From UHGV virus genome UHGV-1827629: DNA of 16,097 nucleotides. One strand, written 5' to 3'. The notes beneath the pieces are model-generated. The model did no database searches. It saw nothing but the letters and a program-made list of their open reading frames with translations, and was not told where the DNA came from. Below are positions 3,595 through 9,628 of this stretch, one piece after another. Both the position numbers and the translations under genes were made by a program. Each line of letters begins with the position of its first letter. Positions within the stretch are counted from its first letter, which is position 1. The DNA comes from a virus.

Positions 3595-4265
3595 CCCTCG
3601 CGGCTGTTCCAGTGAGGCGTTTCCTGCTCAGCACGTCCACGTTTAGCCAGCGGGTTAACCCTGGCGTTTCGAATCCAGACCCTGAAAGCCGAATTCCAGT
3701 CGATCAGCAGCGTGCCGCGGGAAAGGTGATAGTCCCGGAAGTTCAGCAGCTCAGTTTCAATGCTCACCCCCTTCTCGGCAGCCATGGCAATGTGATCTGC
3801 TGATGGCTTAAACAGGGGCGGGAATGGAATCTCCCCGTTTGGTGAAATCCCTATCCGACGTTTTGCGGCTTCGCTCATAAAACCTTCGCGCCCAGAGAGA
3901 GAGTTAGGTTCATTGACTGGTTCAAAAGAGTGACTGATTCTGGGTGCAGCTCCTGCACTACCCCCTAGTGAATCTGTTGCACTACCTAGTGAATCTCCTG
4001 CACTACCCCCTAGTGAATCTGTTGCACTAGGTAAGGTCAGGATGTAGATGTTTGTAGAGTTCCCTTTTGGCCCCTTCCTGAATACTTTTTTCAGTAATCC
4101 AGATTGGCAGAGATCATCAATGTGACTCATGACTGACCGCTTGCTAATTTCGCATTGGTCAGCAATGTATTGATAGCTTGGCCAGCATTCCCCTTGATCG
4201 CTTGCGTTATCTGCCAACTTCAGGAGTACGAGCTTACGCAATGGGTTACCAACCTTAATTTGCAT
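3576..4265 (-). CDS. O: Replication initiator O-like protein (replisome-organizer HTH N-terminus; ori iterons inside the gene)
   Basis: N-terminus [45 protein letters not shown] looks like a replisome-organizer HTH; gene lies between cII and P; contains direct repeats translated as [26 protein letters not shown]. Start ambiguous: ATG 4265 (SD-like GGTGA), 4277 or 4286; the track's 4376 is a TTG extension overlapping the zinc-finger gene. Confidence 0.7.
3952..4030. repeat. Candidate replication-origin iterons: alternating 24-bp (CCTGCACTACCCCCTAGTGAATCT) and 21-bp (GTTGCACTACCTAGTGAATCT) direct repeats, each with a CACTA...TAGTG dyad
   Basis: Read directly: units at 3952-3975, 3976-3996, 3997-4020 and partial 4021-4030, all inside the O reading frame, as lambda ori iterons are. 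Confidence 0.65.
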
Positions 4266-4464
4266 GGCTTTCACCATTAGCATCATGCTCACGATGCAGC
4301 CTCCTGTTATTACTGAATACAAGGTTGACACACTCAAATACGCACTCGTCGCAGATACAAACTCCATCACCGGCAATTATCATGGCGACTTCGTTGTTAT
4401 TTTTTCCGCAAAAAGAGCATTTGTGTGTCGGGTGTAAATTTGCTTTTTTCACATCAATTGGCAT
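4255..4464 (-). CDS. Small C4 zinc-finger protein (69 aa) resembling the ClpX N-terminal zinc-binding domain
   Basis: [32 protein letters not shown] parallels the ClpX ZBD as I recall it ([30 protein letters not shown]); strong SD AGGAG 5-6 nt before ATG at 4462-4464. Confidence 0.6.
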
Positions 4465-4546: not shown

Positions 4547-4768
4547 TCATGCTTCAAAATCTCCATTCACCCCATCCCGGTTTGAAATCAGGATTGCCAG
4601 CAAAAGCGACATGTTCGGAAGCAGGTTTTCCCGCCAGCGACTCACCGTTGATTTGTTAACGCCAGCCACTTCTGCGATTTTTGTCGTACCCAGTTCTGCT
4701 ATCTGGCTGTGTAACCAGCTCTCTATCCTCCGGGCCTCCAGTTTGTTGCGTGTTGTTAAGGTGTCCAT
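4547..4768 (-). CDS. cII: CII-like transcriptional activator (73 aa)
   Basis: LEARRIESWLHSQIAELGTTKIAEVAGVNKSTVSRWRENLLPNMSLLLAIL resembles lambda CII (RIESALLNKIAMLGTEKTAEAVGVDKSQISRWKRDWIPKFSMLLAVL, from memory); GAGGAAG SD upstream; position immediately after cro. Confidence 0.7.
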   Translation of the reverse strand: MDTLTTRNKLEARRIESWLHSQIAELGTTKIAEVAGVNKSTVSRWRENLLPNMSLLLAILISNRDGVNGDFEA

Positions 4769-4808
4769 TTGCGATACTTCCTCTGATTTAATTGGTTATT
4801 GCCGCCGG

Positions 4809-5036
4809 TCAGGCAGCATGGTTCTCTGGGTGTGGAAACAGGTCGGGAAGATCAGGTCGAATTTCGTGTGCCTTAATCTCGCCACCAGTAGCGTTTACGA
4901 TGGCTGTTACTTTTTCCGGAGATACGGAACCACCGTTAAGCCACTTGTGAACCGCTGGCTGGCTAACGCCGCAAATATCTGCGAGTCGCTTCTGGCTGCC
5001 AACGATTTCTAAAGCTCGTTGAATAACTTTGTTCAT
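4809..5036 (-). CDS. cro: Cro-like HTH repressor (75 aa)
   Basis: Short HTH protein (LADICGVSQPAVHKWLNG) transcribed divergently from cI across the operator region. Confidence 0.65.
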   Translation of the reverse strand: MNKVIQRALEIVGSQKRLADICGVSQPAVHKWLNGGSVSPEKVTAIVNATGGEIKAHEIRPDLPDLFPHPENHAA

Positions 5037-5072
5037 GGATTTTACCTATCCGATTACTGGATTAATGAAAAG

Positions 5073-5135
5073 ATAACCTAAGTTATGACCATTGTCCATA
5101 ACCTTTGTTATTTTACTCTGCATAACCTGAGTTAT
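5073..5135. promoter_or_regulatory. OR: three 14-bp operators ATAACCTAAGTTAT (5073-5086), ATAACCTTTGTTAT (5098-5111), ATAACCTGAGTTAT (5122-5135); pR/pRM region
   Basis: Three near-palindromic sites spaced 25 and 24 bp between divergent cro and cI; TATATT -10-like hexamer at 5135-5140 ends 6 nt before the cI ATG. Confidence 0.7.
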
Positions 5136-5146
5136 ATATTGGCGCT

Positions 5147-5851
5147 ATGAAAACATTCGCAGATCGACTCAACGCGGCTATGAGAGCCGCAGGCATATCC
5201 CAAGGGCAGCTGGCTGAGAAAGTCGGCATATCTCAACCTGCAATTCAGAAAATGACATCAGGCAAAACCACAGGCAGCCGTAAGATGGTTGAGCTTGCTC
5301 ATGCATTGAACGTGCGTCCGGAATGGCTCAGTTCGGGCATAGGCTCAATGCAGGACGAAGGACGCAAGGACTCCGCTATCCCACCAGAATCGGAATGGGG
5401 TAAAGTTGACGCTTGGGATAGCAAAACAGATCTGCCAGATGACGAGGTCGAAGTGCCATATCTGAAAGACATAGAACTTGCGTGTGGTGATGGTTCCTGC
5501 TTGGAAGATGACTATAACGGATTCAAACTTCGTTTTGCGAAGTCTACCCTTCGTAAGGTGGGAGCCCAGAAAGATAGCGTGCTGTGCTTCCCGGCATCAG
5601 GAAATAGCATGGAGCCCATGATCCCGGAAGGGACGACGGTCGCCATCAACACGAACGACAAAAAGATCGTTGATGGCAAGGTTTATGCAATAAGCCAGGA
5701 CGGATGGAAAAGGCTAAAATCCATTTATCGTGTGAGTCCTACCCGCATCGTGATTCGCAGCTTCAACAGTGAAGAGTATCCTGATGAAGAAGCGGATATC
5801 GAGAGCGTAGAGATTATTGGTCGCATGTTCTGGACATCTACTATCTGGTAA
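5147..5851 (+). CDS. cI: CI-like phage repressor (N-terminal HTH, C-terminal S24 LexA-like peptidase domain)
   Basis: HTH motif QGQLAEKVGISQPAIQKM; C-terminal GNSMEPMIPEGTTVAINT...WKRLK is the S24 Ser/Lys signature; divergent from cro across OR; no SD and ATG close to the putative -10. Confidence 0.85.
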   Translation: MKTFADRLNAAMRAAGISQGQLAEKVGISQPAIQKMTSGKTTGSRKMVELAHALNVRPEWLSSGIGSMQDEGRKDSAIPPESEWGKVDAWDSKTDLPDDEVEVPYLKDIELACGDGSCLEDDYNGFKLRFAKSTLRKVGAQKDSVLCFPASGNSMEPMIPEGTTVAINTNDKKIVDGKVYAISQDGWKRLKSIYRVSPTRIVIRSFNSEEYPDEEADIESVEIIGRMFWTSTIW

Positions 5852-5865
5852 TCAAGAGGGAAGGG

Positions 5866-6555
5866 ATGAAATTAGAACTAATAGCATTATCTTTACTGGC
5901 TTTAACTACGAACGCAATCGGCTCTAGCACCCTGAGCTGCGATTACGCTAAGTCGGACATCAGTAATGGAGCTAATGCTCCAATGATTCCTAGCGGAAAA
6001 GGCACTGTCGAATTTGATGGAAAATCCTTTAAAGCCACACGTCCAAATGGTGGTGTGATCATTTCACCAATAATCAGTGAACAAAAAAATGGAATGCTTT
6101 TTCTTGACGACAAGACAAAAGTGTTCGCGGCAAGCCTTTCTAAAACTGATTTCGCTATCTCTGACCGAATTGCTCGAATTACTGAGCAATGGGCCAACTG
6201 CATTGATGTTAGTCCATCGCCGAACAATTCAGATAACGACAAACCGGCAACTGCCTGGAAATATAGGTCTCTCACGAAGCAGGAGATAAATGCTGTTGAG
6301 GCAGCAGTGAAAGACCAATTGAAGGATCCAGAAAGTGCCAGATTCAAGCACTCTAAGTTTGTGAGCAACGGGAAAGGCGCTTACTGCGGCCTGGTTAATT
6401 CCAAAAACTCATATGGCGGCTATGCTGGAAACACTCCTTTCATGGTCATGCTTATCAACAATGGCAAACCTCACGCTGGCTTTATTGGTATGGGCGGAGA
6501 TGATGCCGAGACCCTGTCAACGCTATCCGTCTGCAAAGACAGTGGTTATTTCTAA
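5866..6555 (+). CDS. Secreted (signal-peptide) protein of unknown function, 229 aa, 4 Cys; moron in the rexAB-equivalent slot
   Basis: N-terminus MKLELIALSLLALTTNAIG-SS is a typical Sec signal peptide (AxG cleavage site, not a canonical lipobox); SD GAGGGAAGGG before ATG; visibly more AT-rich than flanks with rare Leu/Ile codons; followed by an intrinsic terminator. Confidence 0.65.
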   Translation: MKLELIALSLLALTTNAIGSSTLSCDYAKSDISNGANAPMIPSGKGTVEFDGKSFKATRPNGGVIISPIISEQKNGMLFLDDKTKVFAASLSKTDFAISDRIARITEQWANCIDVSPSPNNSDNDKPATAWKYRSLTKQEINAVEAAVKDQLKDPESARFKHSKFVSNGKGAYCGLVNSKNSYGGYAGNTPFMVMLINNGKPHAGFIGMGGDDAETLSTLSVCKDSGYF

Positions 6556-6573
6556 ACCCCACCTTGATTGAAA

Positions 6574-6596
6574 GCCCCGCATTGCGGGGTTTTTTA
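6574..6596 (+). terminator. Rho-independent terminator ending the cI-moron transcript
   Basis: GCCCCGC-ATT-GCGGGGT hairpin followed by a T-run at 6590-6596, 19 nt after the moron stop codon. Confidence 0.75.
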
Positions 6597-6660
6597 TTGC
6601 CAGAAATCCCCCCACGCCACATTTTTTACAAAAATAAATTCATTTAGCTATCAGTGCATT

Positions 6661-6720
6661 ATAACTTATGTGATGATAATTATAAATTAGGTTATTGCCA
6701 TCACTCATAACTAAGGTTAT
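6661..6720. promoter_or_regulatory. OL: three operators ATAACTTATGTGAT (6661-6674), ATAAATTAGGTTAT (6682-6695), ATAACTAAGGTTAT (6707-6720), inverted relative to OR
   Basis: Reverse complements fit the OR consensus ATAACCTnAGTTAT; spacing 21 and 25 bp; positioned as in lambda between the cI operon terminator and the leftward early operon. Confidence 0.7.
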
Positions 6721-6723
6721 CTT
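6695..6723 (+). promoter_or_regulatory. Candidate pL (-35 TTGCCA 6695-6700, 17-bp spacer, -10 TATCTT 6718-6723)
   Basis: Sigma70-like hexamers with canonical spacing, overlapped by OL sites 1 and 2. Inference only. Confidence 0.5.
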
Positions 6724-7349
6724 TAATCCATCGAAACGAAACATCGACAGCTGAGCGAAGTTAGCCAGCGGCGGACAGCAAGTCGCCTGCTTCTTTAACA
6801 AATCAGACTGAGTGACAGGCAAGCCGTAGCTCTCCTGGCAAAAAGAAATGGCACCCGATGGGATCGAGGTAAGCACTGAGTCCGTATGCGTACGGTAGGT
6901 GTAGAGGACCACGCTGCGATGAGCTGATAAGTCACTCAATTTGAAGCGCTCCGATGATGGGGCGCTGATTCAACTTAGAGGAGTGATTCCAATGAAGAAC
7001 TAAAGCGGACAGACCGCAGCCTAAAGGCAATGCAGCAGTAATGATGCCGCCCTGAGTCGCCGAATGGCGAGCCTGTGTAGTGATGGGTCAAGGTTCTTAT
7101 ATCAAAACAAGCTCCGGTAAAGCAGCGCGAACGCCAGACGCGCACCGGTTATGAGCGGCGATGAGCGACAAGGTCTCAAGGGCATGTGCGCGGCCACTGC
7201 GAGAGTGTGGCGAAGTTTACCAGCAGCTCTTTGCGAGGGGCTGACGGTAAACAAAAAGAGGAGTGTGTATGGCAGATAAAAAAACGGCGCCACTACTGCT
7301 TAACGTAGACGCCAGCGAGGTACTTACTCAGACCGGGGAGCTTTTAAAG

Positions 7350-7571
7350 TTACTTGAACTTCCAGCCAGTTCCTTTCAGGGAATTCCTGAGCATGTCGTC
7401 GATCTGTTTTTTGACCGTGTCCGTGGCCTGATTGACAACATCGTCCTTAGTGATTTCTCGACCACAGTCAGCACAACTGACGCCGGTGAAATTTGTCTCA
7501 AAGTCAAAATCATCGGGCTGGTTGAACATCTCACTTCCGCAGTCAGGGCACACGGTCCGCATGGTTTGCAT
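7350..7571 (-). CDS. Small zinc-ribbon protein (73 aa; CPDCG...CADCG)
   Basis: Two CxxCG knuckles 22 residues apart; AAAGGA SD 7 nt before ATG (cat 7569-7571); by my hand count this frame is more coding-like than the overlapping + frame. The + ORF 7269-7610 is an unresolved alternative. Confidence 0.5.
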   Translation of the reverse strand: MQTMRTVCPDCGSEMFNQPDDFDFETNFTGVSCADCGREITKDDVVNQATDTVKKQIDDMLRNSLKGTGWKFK

Positions 7572-7829
7572 GAATATATCCTTTCTACTGTTGGGGAGAT
7601 TAAAGAGTAAGCGATTTCTTGCTGTTGGGGAATAGCGGGAAAGCGCGCGCCGGGCGCGGATAAATACCCCGGCACTAACTGGAATGTTTTGGGCTGGCAG
7701 ACGGTTATCAGCTAGTTGGTGAGGTAATGGCTCACCAAGGCGACGACGGCCTTCCCTGCTGCTTGAAAGCGGGGAGCCAGCACCAAAACATTTCTCCCGC
7801 ATCAGCGGGTAACGACAGAGGGTAAGGCT

Positions 7830-8105
7830 ATGAAAACAAGTAGCGGACAAGAGATTTTAAAGGGATTCAATGTTCGTGATATCTCTGCTGATTATGACGA
7901 GCCAAGGTTTGATGTTTTGTTTGTCCACGATGATGGCAAATGCCGGTATTCAAACGATGTTTTTGGTTCTGAGCAAGAAGCCATCAGTTACGCAGAAACA
8001 TGTAACGCCAGCACAGCAGACGATGAATGCTGGGACTACTACCAGCACTCTTCAAGCAGCGCCGACTGGAAGCTGATTCATCACATTGAAGCTAAAGCCG
8101 CCTAA
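7830..8105 (+). CDS. Hypothetical early protein (91 aa, acidic, Cys-containing)
   Basis: SD AGAGGGTAAGG before ATG at 7830; stop codon lies in the loop of an intrinsic terminator. Confidence 0.55.
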   Translation: MKTSSGQEILKGFNVRDISADYDEPRFDVLFVHDDGKCRYSNDVFGSEQEAISYAETCNASTADDECWDYYQHSSSSADWKLIHHIEAKAA

Positions 8106-8656: not shown

Positions 8657-9628
8657 ATGAGCGAAGTAACGGACTTAACTGTCATCGAAATCAAGCCGGA
8701 ACAGGCCCCAGTGCTTTACGTAGCGGGCGGCCTTGACGCGTACCTTGAGCAAATCCGCCAGGCTGTAAACGAAGTGCCGGACCTGTCCACGAAGAAAGGC
8801 CGTGACCGTGTTGCCTCTCTGGCAGCGCAGGTGTCCCGCAGCAAGACGGCAATCGAAAAGCCGGGCCGTGAGTACCTGAAGCGCCTGAAAGAGGCTGTGC
8901 GTCCGGCTGAGGCCGAAATTAAGCGATTCGTTGATGCCTGCGACGAGCTGCGCGATGCGACCCGCCGCCCACTCACCGAATGGGAAGCCGAGCAGGAACG
9001 CATTAAGGCTGAAGAAGCCATGAACGCGATGCACGCCGAAGCGCTGGAGATGAACATCAGGTTCGATCAGGAGCTGGCTGCCAAGTTCGAAGCGGACCAC
9101 GAAATGGCTCTACTGATGAACAAGGATTTTGACCGTGACCGCGAAGAGCAGCGCCGTCTGGCGGAACAGGCTCAGCGTGAACGTGATGAGCGGCTGAAAC
9201 AGGAAGCGGCAGAACAAGCCCGCCGCGATGCCGAAGCGAAGCACAAAGCGGAGATTGAAGCCGCAGCGCGCCGTGAAGCTGAAGAGAAAGCACGTGCAGA
9301 GCTGGCTGAACGCCAGCGCGTCGAAGCGGAACAGCGTACAGCTCGCGAGAAGCAGGAAGCAGAAGCCCGGGCAGAACGCGAAAAAGCCGCGGCGGTTGAA
9401 GCCGAGCGCCTGAAGGCCAAACAGGCCGAAGATGCCCGCCTGGCCGAAGAGAAGCGCCTCGCCGATGAGCAGGCAAAGCGTGAAGCTGACGTTAAGCACC
9501 GCAAGACGGTCGGCACCAACATCGTTAACGCGCTCACCAGCCACACCAGCTTAACCCGCGAACAGGCTATCGAAGTGCTTACCGCTCTGAAAGATGACCT
9601 CATCCCCTGCGCGAAAATTCATTACTGA
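8657..9628 (+). CDS. Large charged coiled-coil protein (323 aa) with an extended Glu/Arg/Lys/Ala-rich central helix; function unknown
   Basis: SD CAGGAG before ATG at 8657; ~150-residue central stretch of AEEKARAELAERQRVEAEQRTAREKQEAEARAEREK type; conserved-looking globular ends. Confidence 0.7.
   Translation: MSEVTDLTVIEIKPEQAPVLYVAGGLDAYLEQIRQAVNEVPDLSTKKGRDRVASLAAQVSRSKTAIEKPGREYLKRLKEAVRPAEAEIKRFVDACDELRDATRRPLTEWEAEQERIKAEEAMNAMHAEALEMNIRFDQELAAKFEADHEMALLMNKDFDRDREEQRRLAEQAQRERDERLKQEAAEQARRDAEAKHKAEIEAAARREAEEKARAELAERQRVEAEQRTAREKQEAEARAEREKAAAVEAERLKAKQAEDARLAEEKRLADEQAKREADVKHRKTVGTNIVNALTSHTSLTREQAIEVLTALKDDLIPCAKIHY

Follow-up and report, generated by a model that had tools for sequence, protein, structure and literature searches.

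What does a prophage gain from a gene for an exported protein that stands directly behind its repressor gene? The question is raised by the virus genome UHGV-1827629, of which a stretch of 16,097 nucleotides (nt) was analysed here (the window). Between a cI-type repressor gene and the left operator, this window carries an open reading frame (ORF) of 229 amino acids (aa), called gene X below, which an initial annotation made from the letters alone had described as a gene for a secreted protein of low guanine-plus-cytosine (GC) content and had linked, as a plausible role, to superinfection exclusion or envelope modification. Judged by profile matches, X is a chimera in which the N-terminal half of PHROG 2578 is joined to a PHROG 2320 domain, and comparison with related loci shows that its C-terminal half has been exchanged as a cassette. 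A function in periplasmic superinfection exclusion is proposed tentatively and is weighed below against its rivals. The gene and the parts of its product are placed as follows.

5866-6555, plus strand: gene X, with an ATG start and 229 codons plus stop.
5866-5922, plus strand: signal peptide, residues 1-19 (MKLELIALSLLALTTNAIG), with a predicted signal peptidase I (SPase-I) site A-I-G↓S and no lipobox, from hydropathy.
5926-6201, plus strand: N-domain, residues 21-112, all-beta with nine strands, carrying C25 and C112 and the motif FA[VI]SDRIxKTTEQWAxC (PHROG 2578/14768, AlphaFold2).
6202-6255, plus strand: linker, residues 113-130, disordered and poorly conserved, with a predicted local distance difference test score (pLDDT) of 53-73.
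6256-6552, plus strand: C-domain, residues 131-229, carrying C174 and C223 and the motifs LKDPxSAxF and YCGxVNxKNSYGGYxGxxPF (PHROG 2320, the ES18 gp20 family).
6201-6574, plus strand: exchangeable cassette, in place of which loci L013 and L030 have a 'type B' domain (DNA comparison).

The sole hydrophobic stretch of X spans residues 3-13 and is followed by NAIG↓SS, with none in the mature part. Homologues of X have AXA-type cleavage sites ahead of the first conserved Cys, and the residue immediately in front of this Cys can be S, E, H, I, Q, R, N, L or V. Because of these sites and this high variability, X is read as a substrate of SPase-I and not as a lipoprotein; the latter was considered and rejected, as no lipobox (L-[AS]-[GA]-C) is present. 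The mature product is predicted to be a soluble periplasmic protein of 22 kDa without a membrane anchor. The four Cys residues (25, 112, 174 and 223) do not vary among 22 full-length homologues, nor do C25 and C112 among 27 diverse N-domains, and among 192 C-domains C174 is kept in 98% and C223 in 94%, a pattern from which one disulfide per domain (C25-C112 and C174-C223) would be expected. The Sec export signal and the two likely disulfides proposed in the initial annotation agree with the hydrophobic segment and the four invariant Cys described here.

A structure model of X, obtained with AlphaFold2 from a 90-sequence alignment, has a mean pLDDT of 85.8, with both domains at about 90 or above, a disordered linker, and residues 1-20 at about 50. 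It places nine beta-strands over residues 21-114 and, over residues 132-225, a helix, a 4-5-stranded sheet and a C-terminal helix in a cystatin-like alpha/beta arrangement. The linker that joins these two independently folding domains shares 0-39% identity with that of homologues, save for the closest homologue (P0001), with which it shares 83%. Residues 17-117 match PHROG 2578 (E 6e-30) and PHROG 14768 (E 2e-28), including the invariant Cys pair and the TEQW motif, and residues 126-201 match PHROG 2320 (E 5e-21), including the Cys pair and both motifs; ES18 gp20 belongs to the latter family as well (E 3e-35). The earlier statement that X has no recognisable domain stands as far as Pfam, NCBIfam and PADLOC are concerned, scans of which with X, its stand-alone relatives and its alternative architectures gave no family other than IalB, SPOR and PG_binding_1 on partner domains, and it falls with the three PHROG matches. 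Nothing meaningful was returned by phmmer or by a profile hmmsearch against PDB sequences, nor did Foldseek with the X model give any PDB entry at E<1e-3. Matches in BFVD were confined to uncharacterised phage proteins and 'putative lipoproteins', and a literature search on the RefSeq accession of X found nothing. The families to which X belongs are uncharacterised, and they lack a Pfam model as well as structural relatives whose function is known.

The two domains differ widely in their distribution. A profile search with X over 1.84 billion representatives gave 7,086 clusters (50% identity) at E<=1e-3, and nearly all of the 150 matches listed are stand-alone proteins of about 110-150 aa that align to the C-domain part of the profile. 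Across this family, the motifs LKDPxSAxF and YCGxVNxKNSYGGYxGxxPF and the distal Cys are near-invariant. Its hosts and replicons include Paracoccus, Comamonas, Rhizobium plasmids, and phages of Xanthomonas and Pectobacterium, and structural relatives are found in virulent phages (BFVD). A lipobox-like signal is present in 60 of 162 stand-alone members, and fusion proteins join the C-domain to SPOR (Pseudomonas phage AUS531phi) or to PG_binding_1 (Paracoccus phage Pkon1). N-domains are far less common and were seen in Enterobacteriaceae only, where the C-terminal partners of 62 N-domain proteins fall into at least four unrelated classes.

Class 1: PHROG 2320-type C-domain, as in X (23 proteins).
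Class 2: 'type B' domain, giving full-length PHROG 2578 (28 proteins).
Class 3: a domain of about 220 aa, PHROG 11231 (P0044 and P0097).
Class 4: IalB-like domain (P0094 and P0095).

In a further form, a Cys-rich segment stands ahead of the N-domain. The IalB-like partner has a weak match (E 0.011) to VasI of the type VI secretion system (T6SS).

The exchange of these partners can be followed in the DNA. A locus of Enterobacter mori (L013) and one from a metagenome (L030) are homologous to the window over 4793-6200, that is through cro, cI and X as far as codon 112, and again from 6575 on, through the terminator, OL and PL. Over 6201-6574, no DNA homology between these loci and the window was detected, and an unrelated 'type B' C-terminal domain is encoded there. 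Locus L037 agrees fully with the window in its C-domain DNA, whereas its N-domain has a synonymous divergence (dS) of 0.68, from which it follows that the two halves of X have had separate histories. The unit of variation in X is the domain cassette and not the point substitution.

N-domain proteins are also encoded outside recognisable prophage genes, in an islet present in eight loci (L117-L124) of Enterobacter, Kosakonia, Kluyvera, Buttiauxella, Scandinavium, Pseudenterobacter and Citrobacter. The islet product is an exported protein of 186-199 aa made up of a signal peptide, a Cys-rich KNCKKGIPCGNSCI segment, a Ser-rich linker and the N-domain. At a fixed distance downstream, seven of the eight loci have a 165-aa ORF (148 aa in L124); the product of this ORF has a signal peptide in L118, where a lipoprotein gene comes next. 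The chromosomal sites differ, the islet lying beside trpE-yciO in L118 and beside miaE and an integrase fragment in L123.

At 44.3%, the GC content of X is below that of cI (49.5%) and that of the window (52.1%), and the low value resides mostly in the N-terminal half (41.6%, with 35% at third codon positions, GC3) rather than in the C-terminal half (47.2%, GC3 52%). Codon comparison against four homologous loci gave ratios of nonsynonymous to synonymous substitution (dN/dS) of 0.05-0.11, which indicates that the frame is translated and constrained and that X is a real gene. Strong purifying selection acts on both domains. Given this plus-frame constraint, minus-strand ORFs that overlap X (5943-6368 and others) and a minus-strand promoter-like site (6686-6658) were treated as chance occurrences.

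The position of X with respect to the repressor gene is defined by the following features of the window.

5073-5135, unstranded: right operator OR, three 14-nt operator repeats (ATAACCTAAGTTAT, ATAACCTTTGTTAT and ATAACCTGAGTTAT) of the type ATAACCTnAGTTAT, at 25- and 24-nt spacing (repeat scan).
5112-5140, plus strand: PRM-like promoter, TTTACT-17-TATATT (promoter scan).
5147-5851, plus strand: cI-type repressor of 234 aa with HTH_3 and Peptidase_S24, first gene of the operon (Pfam, PHROGs).
5853-5863, plus strand: Shine-Dalgarno-like AAGAGGGAAGG in the 14-nt gap between cI and X.
6570-6598, plus strand: intrinsic terminator at the end of the cI-X transcript, GAAAGCCCCGC-AUU-GCGGGGUUUUU followed by a U-run.
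6661-6720, unstranded: left operator OL, three operator repeats related to those of OR (repeat scan).
6695-6723, plus strand: PL-like promoter, TTGCCA-17-TATCTT, followed by a phi80-like leader with boxA (6723-6807).

The repressor matches HTH_3 (E 1.4e-10) and Peptidase_S24 (E 4.9e-17) in Pfam and PHROG 4 'transcriptional repressor' (E 2.7e-55). Upstream of cI lie a divergent cro (4809-5036), cII (4547-4768) and an O-like replication gene, which confirm that the region around cI is, by its gene content, a lambdoid immunity region. The start codon of X is 14 nt past the cI stop, with the Shine-Dalgarno-like AAGAGGGAAGGG directly 5' of it in the gap as a ribosome-binding site of its own, and a terminator scan of this gap found none. 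The hairpin that follows X (6570-6594 plus the U-run) folds at -17.3 kcal/mol (z -3.4), a value that 0 shuffles equal, and the terminator is conserved in L002 and L013. Read from this operon anatomy, the stretch from PRM through cI and X to the terminator would be one transcription unit. Since the -10 element of the PRM-like promoter ends at 5140, 6 nt ahead of the cI ATG, the cI-X mRNA is probably leaderless, or nearly so, as at lambda PRM. The low-GC gene between cI and OL and its shared operon with cI, both described in the initial annotation, are thus recovered, and the separate acquisition suggested there accords with the base composition of X as well as with the cassette exchange.

The slot between cI and OL had also been taken to be a place for variable cargo. 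Elsewhere it holds 40A in phi80 and three unknown genes in HK639, and the cI operon of phage K139 carries the gene for Glo. Cargo genes of the moron type are recognised by being absent or replaced between homologous phages, by having their own transcription signals and by a base composition unlike that of their neighbours. Replacement is seen in the phi80 and HK639 cargo and in the L013/L030 swap, and absence in E. coli, where gene X is present in 1 of 5,426 complete genomes. Its transcription signals, as read from the sequence, are PRM (by way of cI) and its own terminator, with further terminators at the copies near tape-measure genes described below, and its composition departs from that of cI and of the window. 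The best explanation of these data is that the prophage is lambdoid and HK639/phi80-like, with X as moron-type cargo in its repressor operon. The possibility that X is a housekeeping periplasmic protein, which the initial annotation had named as an outcome that would speak against its proposal, is not borne out by the rarity of the gene in E. coli or by the location of its relatives, since all five stand-alone relatives sampled from a general database lie inside prophages.

Relatives of X recur in a small set of genomic positions. At 13 IMG/VR loci and at L002-L005, L013 and L030, the gene lies 14 nt past a cI gene of 94-100% identity. In three other loci (L063, L068 and L080), a C-domain gene that stands alone comes directly after an unrelated S24 repressor gene or overlaps with it, and in a Mu-like prophage (L021) such a gene shares an operon with an S24 repressor. 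The second position is next to the tape-measure gene. At 18 two-domain IMG/VR loci, and at P0006, P0007, P0020 and P0044 (from Klebsiella, Leclercia and Cronobacter), the gene is 43-105 nt upstream of a tape-measure gene; the downstream neighbours at the 18 IMG/VR loci are ORFs of 859-1,151 aa, and tape-measure Pfam matches were obtained for five of the seven neighbouring ORFs tested. An intrinsic terminator separates X from the tape-measure gene in all three loci scanned, of which one has a terminator upstream as well and one a promoter-like site upstream. Among single-domain IMG/VR loci, 19 of 48 have an ORF of at least 500 aa, the size of a tape-measure gene, no more than 600 nt away. ES18 gp20, annotated as a 'possible moron', has its own terminator and stands directly before the tape-measure gene gp21, and further tape-measure-adjacent single-domain cases are found in Klebsiella phage 5 and at P0089. 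Most copies in this slot are co-oriented with the late tail operon, and two tape-measure-adjacent copies (P0057 and Pkon1 p57) are on the strand opposite to the tail genes. Other accessory sites are beside the integrase gene, between tail genes, and ahead of a Mu-like lysis cassette. The reading of the tape-measure-adjacent copies as tail assembly chaperones or structural proteins was rejected, since they have a signal peptide and conserved Cys pairs and are bracketed by terminators, and since the same protein is also encoded in the cI operon.

Two Mu-like arrangements may be recorded beside these. In L127, a stand-alone C-domain gene lies just upstream of the lysis cassette (holin, SLT), between mor and the holin/endolysin genes, and in L021 the C-domain gene of the repressor operon is two ORFs upstream of an Amidase_2 gene. 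Both placements point to a possible link to peptidoglycan hydrolases.

From protein and position together, the most likely reading, though at somewhat less than even confidence, is that X is a lysogen-expressed periplasmic superinfection-exclusion factor which acts at the cell-wall/tape-measure step of DNA entry. In a lysogen, X would be made continuously together with the repressor, exported by Sec, oxidised at C25-C112 and C174-C223, and held in soluble form in the periplasm. The C-domain would be the active, autonomous unit at the cell-wall layer, working through its invariant DPxSAxF / VNxKNSYGGYxG surface; it is read in this way because elsewhere it occurs alone with a signal or a lipid anchor, or fused to SPOR or PG_binding_1. 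The Enterobacteriaceae-specific N-terminal barrel would serve as an adaptor or tether for alternative effector domains. So placed, X could interfere with the periplasmic delivery of the genomes of superinfecting siphophages, at the insertion of the tail tip and tape measure or at the crossing of peptidoglycan, one possible sub-mechanism being inhibition of a tail-associated peptidoglycan hydrolase. Exclusion of this kind would be independent of the repressor, in analogy to Glo of K139, gp15 of HK97 and Ltp of TP-J34. The repeated and independent placement of the family in lysogen-expressed or moron positions appears to support a role in exclusion, and a phage-versus-phage role fits better than one in host virulence because structural relatives occur in virulent phages.

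Several points weigh against this proposal. Neither in sequence nor in fold is X related to a characterised exclusion protein, as far as Pfam, NCBIfam, PADLOC and a direct comparison with Glo can reveal one. Adjacency to tape-measure genes may reflect merely a permissive insertion site for morons. The dN/dS values give no sign of diversifying selection, and the C-domain motif hardly varies throughout a very broad family, which argues for a conserved host-side ligand and not for a fast-evolving phage target. That the N-domain is the tether and the C-domain the effector is argued solely from domain architecture.

X might instead be a periplasmic inhibitor or 'orphan immunity' protein directed against antibacterial enzymes of the periplasm, such as T6SS amidase or muramidase effectors, colicin M or pesticin-type bacteriocins or host lysozyme, and its benefit would then lie in bacterial competition and not in phage defence. 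X resembles such a protein in being soluble, periplasmic and disulfide-bonded (as predicted), and the invariant motif of its C-domain is of the protruding-hairpin type, similar to the conserved loops through which Ivy and PliC/MliC proteins inhibit their targets. The fusions of the C-domain to peptidoglycan-binding domains, the proximity of the gene to lysis cassettes in Mu-like prophages, the IalB-like partner domain and its weak VasI match point in the same direction. Pfam, however, finds no match of X to Ivy, MliC/PliC or another inhibitor family, X has neither a profile match to the periplasmic lysozyme inhibitors (Ivy, MliC/PliC, PliG/PliI) nor a fold match with their inhibitory loop motifs, none of about 10 neighbourhoods inspected has an adjacent toxin or T6SS gene, all relatives sampled are inside prophages, and the virulent phages that carry structural relatives would gain little from toxin immunity; on balance, an inhibitor of this kind is unlikely.

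Two further explanations concern the lysogen and the lytic cycle, respectively. X might be a lysogenic-conversion factor that promotes host fitness or virulence through adhesion, serum or stress resistance or cell-wall remodelling, like lambda Bor or Lom, and that excludes neither phage nor toxin. A predicted exported product of the repressor operon is what such a factor would look like, one alternative partner of the N-domain resembles the 'invasion-associated locus B' protein, and in the non-prophage islet of Enterobacteriaceae the gene for an N-domain protein is grouped with those for two further exported proteins; yet the C-domain family is not specific to pathogens, since phages of soil, plant and aquatic bacteria carry it too, its link to tail and tape-measure genes is strong, and X itself is very rare in E. 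coli, so that conversion has a small probability. Alternatively, the cI-operon place could be secondary and X could serve the lytic cycle, acting from the periplasm late in infection, by masking receptors or cell-wall sites against loss of progeny on debris (as T5 Llp does) or by modulating lysis. The co-orientation of most tape-measure-adjacent copies with the late tail operon would fit this, as would the gene between mor and the holin/endolysin genes in Mu-like phages. The copy in the window, on the other hand, is insulated from PL and PR by a terminator and lies in the sole operon active in lysogens, the tape-measure-adjacent copies are bracketed by terminators, and some are opposite in strand to the tail genes, as is typical of independently expressed morons; a primary role in the lytic cycle is accordingly improbable.

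If superinfection exclusion is nevertheless taken as the function of X, a wider and more doubtful proposal can be framed. The ES18 gp20-like C-domain (>7,000 clusters) could then be one of the largest unrecognised families of phage periplasmic exclusion modules in Proteobacteria, acting at the cell-wall/tape-measure step of siphophage entry. In Enterobacteriaceae prophages, a common N-barrel adaptor would take this domain as one among at least four effector cassettes that can replace each other, and specificity would be reprogrammed by cassette exchange and not by point mutation. Soluble periplasmic exclusion proteins are rare among characterised examples, Glo being called an exception (PMC3952083). 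The passage of the siphophage tape measure across the periplasm is poorly understood, and the X family, were the exclusion reading true, would offer a widespread and genetically simple handle on it, consisting of a single small protein that is exported and of which natural domain-swap variants exist while the rest of the immunity region stays identical. The same reading would account for the 'hypothetical protein' that very commonly stands beside tape-measure genes and repressors in prophages of Klebsiella, Enterobacter, Citrobacter, Cronobacter and numerous further Proteobacteria, and would be relevant to host-range failures of phage therapy in lysogens. Should X instead inhibit peptidoglycan hydrolases or toxins, it would represent a new inhibitor fold family.

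Other features of the window concern mainly the PL operon. In the leader (6723-6807), identity to the PL leader of phi80, which contains the nutL boxA, is about 95%, and no N-like plus-strand ORF of at least 40 aa occurs between PL and 7263 (6723-7262). The segment 7216-7253 conserves the 3' stem-loop of the 'putL-like antiterminator RNA' of HK639, with a diverged 5' part, and the prophage probably uses put-type RNA antitermination, to judge from these elements. Positions 6990-7243 (approximately) match unannotated DNA of other phages at about 84%. Further downstream, a very stable structured RNA candidate (7683-7793, plus strand) occupies the gap between the ORFs 7263-7610 and 7830-8105. The fold of 7660-7815 (-69.2 kcal/mol, z -5.3) has a long closing stem around two hairpins, one of which (7704-7750) resembles positions 237-283 of bacterial 16S rRNA (Rfam SSU, 32 bits, E 2.8e-7, below the gathering score); an Rfam scan of the window gave no gathering-level matches. 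Between the same conserved flanks, HK639 has a tRNA-Ile(GAT) called by ARAGORN, and changes in the closing stem appear compensatory. A 36-mer of the structured RNA is also found in the IMG/VR locus L033. Taken together, 7683-7793 looks like a cassette-like variable RNA of the PL operon.

Three protein-coding features of the window may be added. A 69-aa ORF on the minus strand (4255-4464) encodes a ClpX-type C4 zinc finger (Pfam zf-C4_ClpX, E 2.3e-13); it overlaps the 5' end of the O-like replication gene, downstream of cII in the early-right operon. The ORFs 7263-7610 (plus strand) and 7350-7850 (minus strand) overlap on opposite strands. The former is the counterpart of HK639_45 (97% DNA identity), and the latter has a zinc-ribbon-like C-terminal part (PHROG 4852, E 3e-8) and a doubtful N-terminal part that crosses the structured RNA. 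Finally, a 323-aa ORF (8657-9628, plus strand) has an unusually high GC content (59%) and a strong purine/AT skew; a gene of the same length is present in the PL operon of L002, L003, L013 and E. coli ET729, with no Pfam match.

Among known systems, the parts of X have their true homologues in ES18 gp20 and the rest of PHROG 2320 and in PHROG 2578, whose members end in the 'type B' domain. A search of the literature for periplasmic exclusion proteins of prophages that have been characterised yielded only SieA, gp15, Ltp, Glo, DicB, Tab and Tai, of which the Tai systems, placed mainly upstream of the packaging module, were judged unrelated to X. The cargo of lambda in the slot of X is rexA/rexB, which follow the same logic in lying downstream of cI, being transcribed from PRM and ending before OL. 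Rex is, however, a two-protein cytoplasmic/inner-membrane abortive-infection system, whereas X is a single exported protein without homology to Rex, without a hydrophobic segment past its signal peptide and without a Pfam match that would place it with RexAB. Cor of phi80, N15 and HK022, Llp of T5 and Sp (spackle) of T4 are small phage envelope proteins that act against superinfection, as is proposed for X. T4 Sp is a periplasmic inhibitor of the tail lysozyme, and Cor and Llp are outer-membrane lipoproteins, a class from which X is set apart by having no lipobox; no Pfam or fold match of X to Cor, Llp or Sp was found.

In genomic position, the tape-measure-adjacent members of the X family recall HK97 gene 15, located at the junction of the tail assembly chaperone and tape-measure genes, whose product is made by the prophage and acts in superinfection exclusion (PMC3594210). 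HK97 gp15 blocks DNA entry in a manner that depends on the tail region of the infecting phage (Cumby et al. 2012), and its slot is that of many X-family genes, two-domain and single-domain, with terminators as boundaries. The proteins differ, gp15 being a small YebO-like inner-membrane protein and X a predicted soluble protein without a membrane anchor; mature X has no transmembrane segment and no Pfam match that would place it with gp15/YebO. In mechanism, the model proposed for X is that of Ltp of the Streptococcus thermophilus phage TP-J34, an exported, prophage-expressed lipoprotein of the lysogeny module that blocks DNA injection, with the tape measure identified as its target (Bebeacua et al. 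2013, cited in PMC3952083). X differs from Ltp in having no lipobox and in its domains, an all-beta barrel and a cystatin-like alpha/beta domain in the model.

In wiring and localisation, the closest analogue of X is Glo of the Vibrio cholerae phage K139, a soluble periplasmic protein with a signal peptide and a role in phage exclusion (Nesper et al. 1999), whose gene belongs to a lysogenic operon of the order cI-orf2-glo-int. The likeness lies in the repressor-operon wiring and the soluble periplasmic localisation, both taken for X from sequence and gene order, and is one of analogy; homology was rejected on an hhalign probability of 0.6% and a BLASTP E value of 24. Glo is a single domain of 137 aa, in contrast to X with its two domains, of which the C-terminal one is a swappable cassette. 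An envelope-protein moron placed in the repressor operon is a kind already known, and what is new in X is the uncharacterised families of which it is composed and a modular, soluble periplasmic architecture unlike that of the membrane-anchored exclusion proteins described so far.

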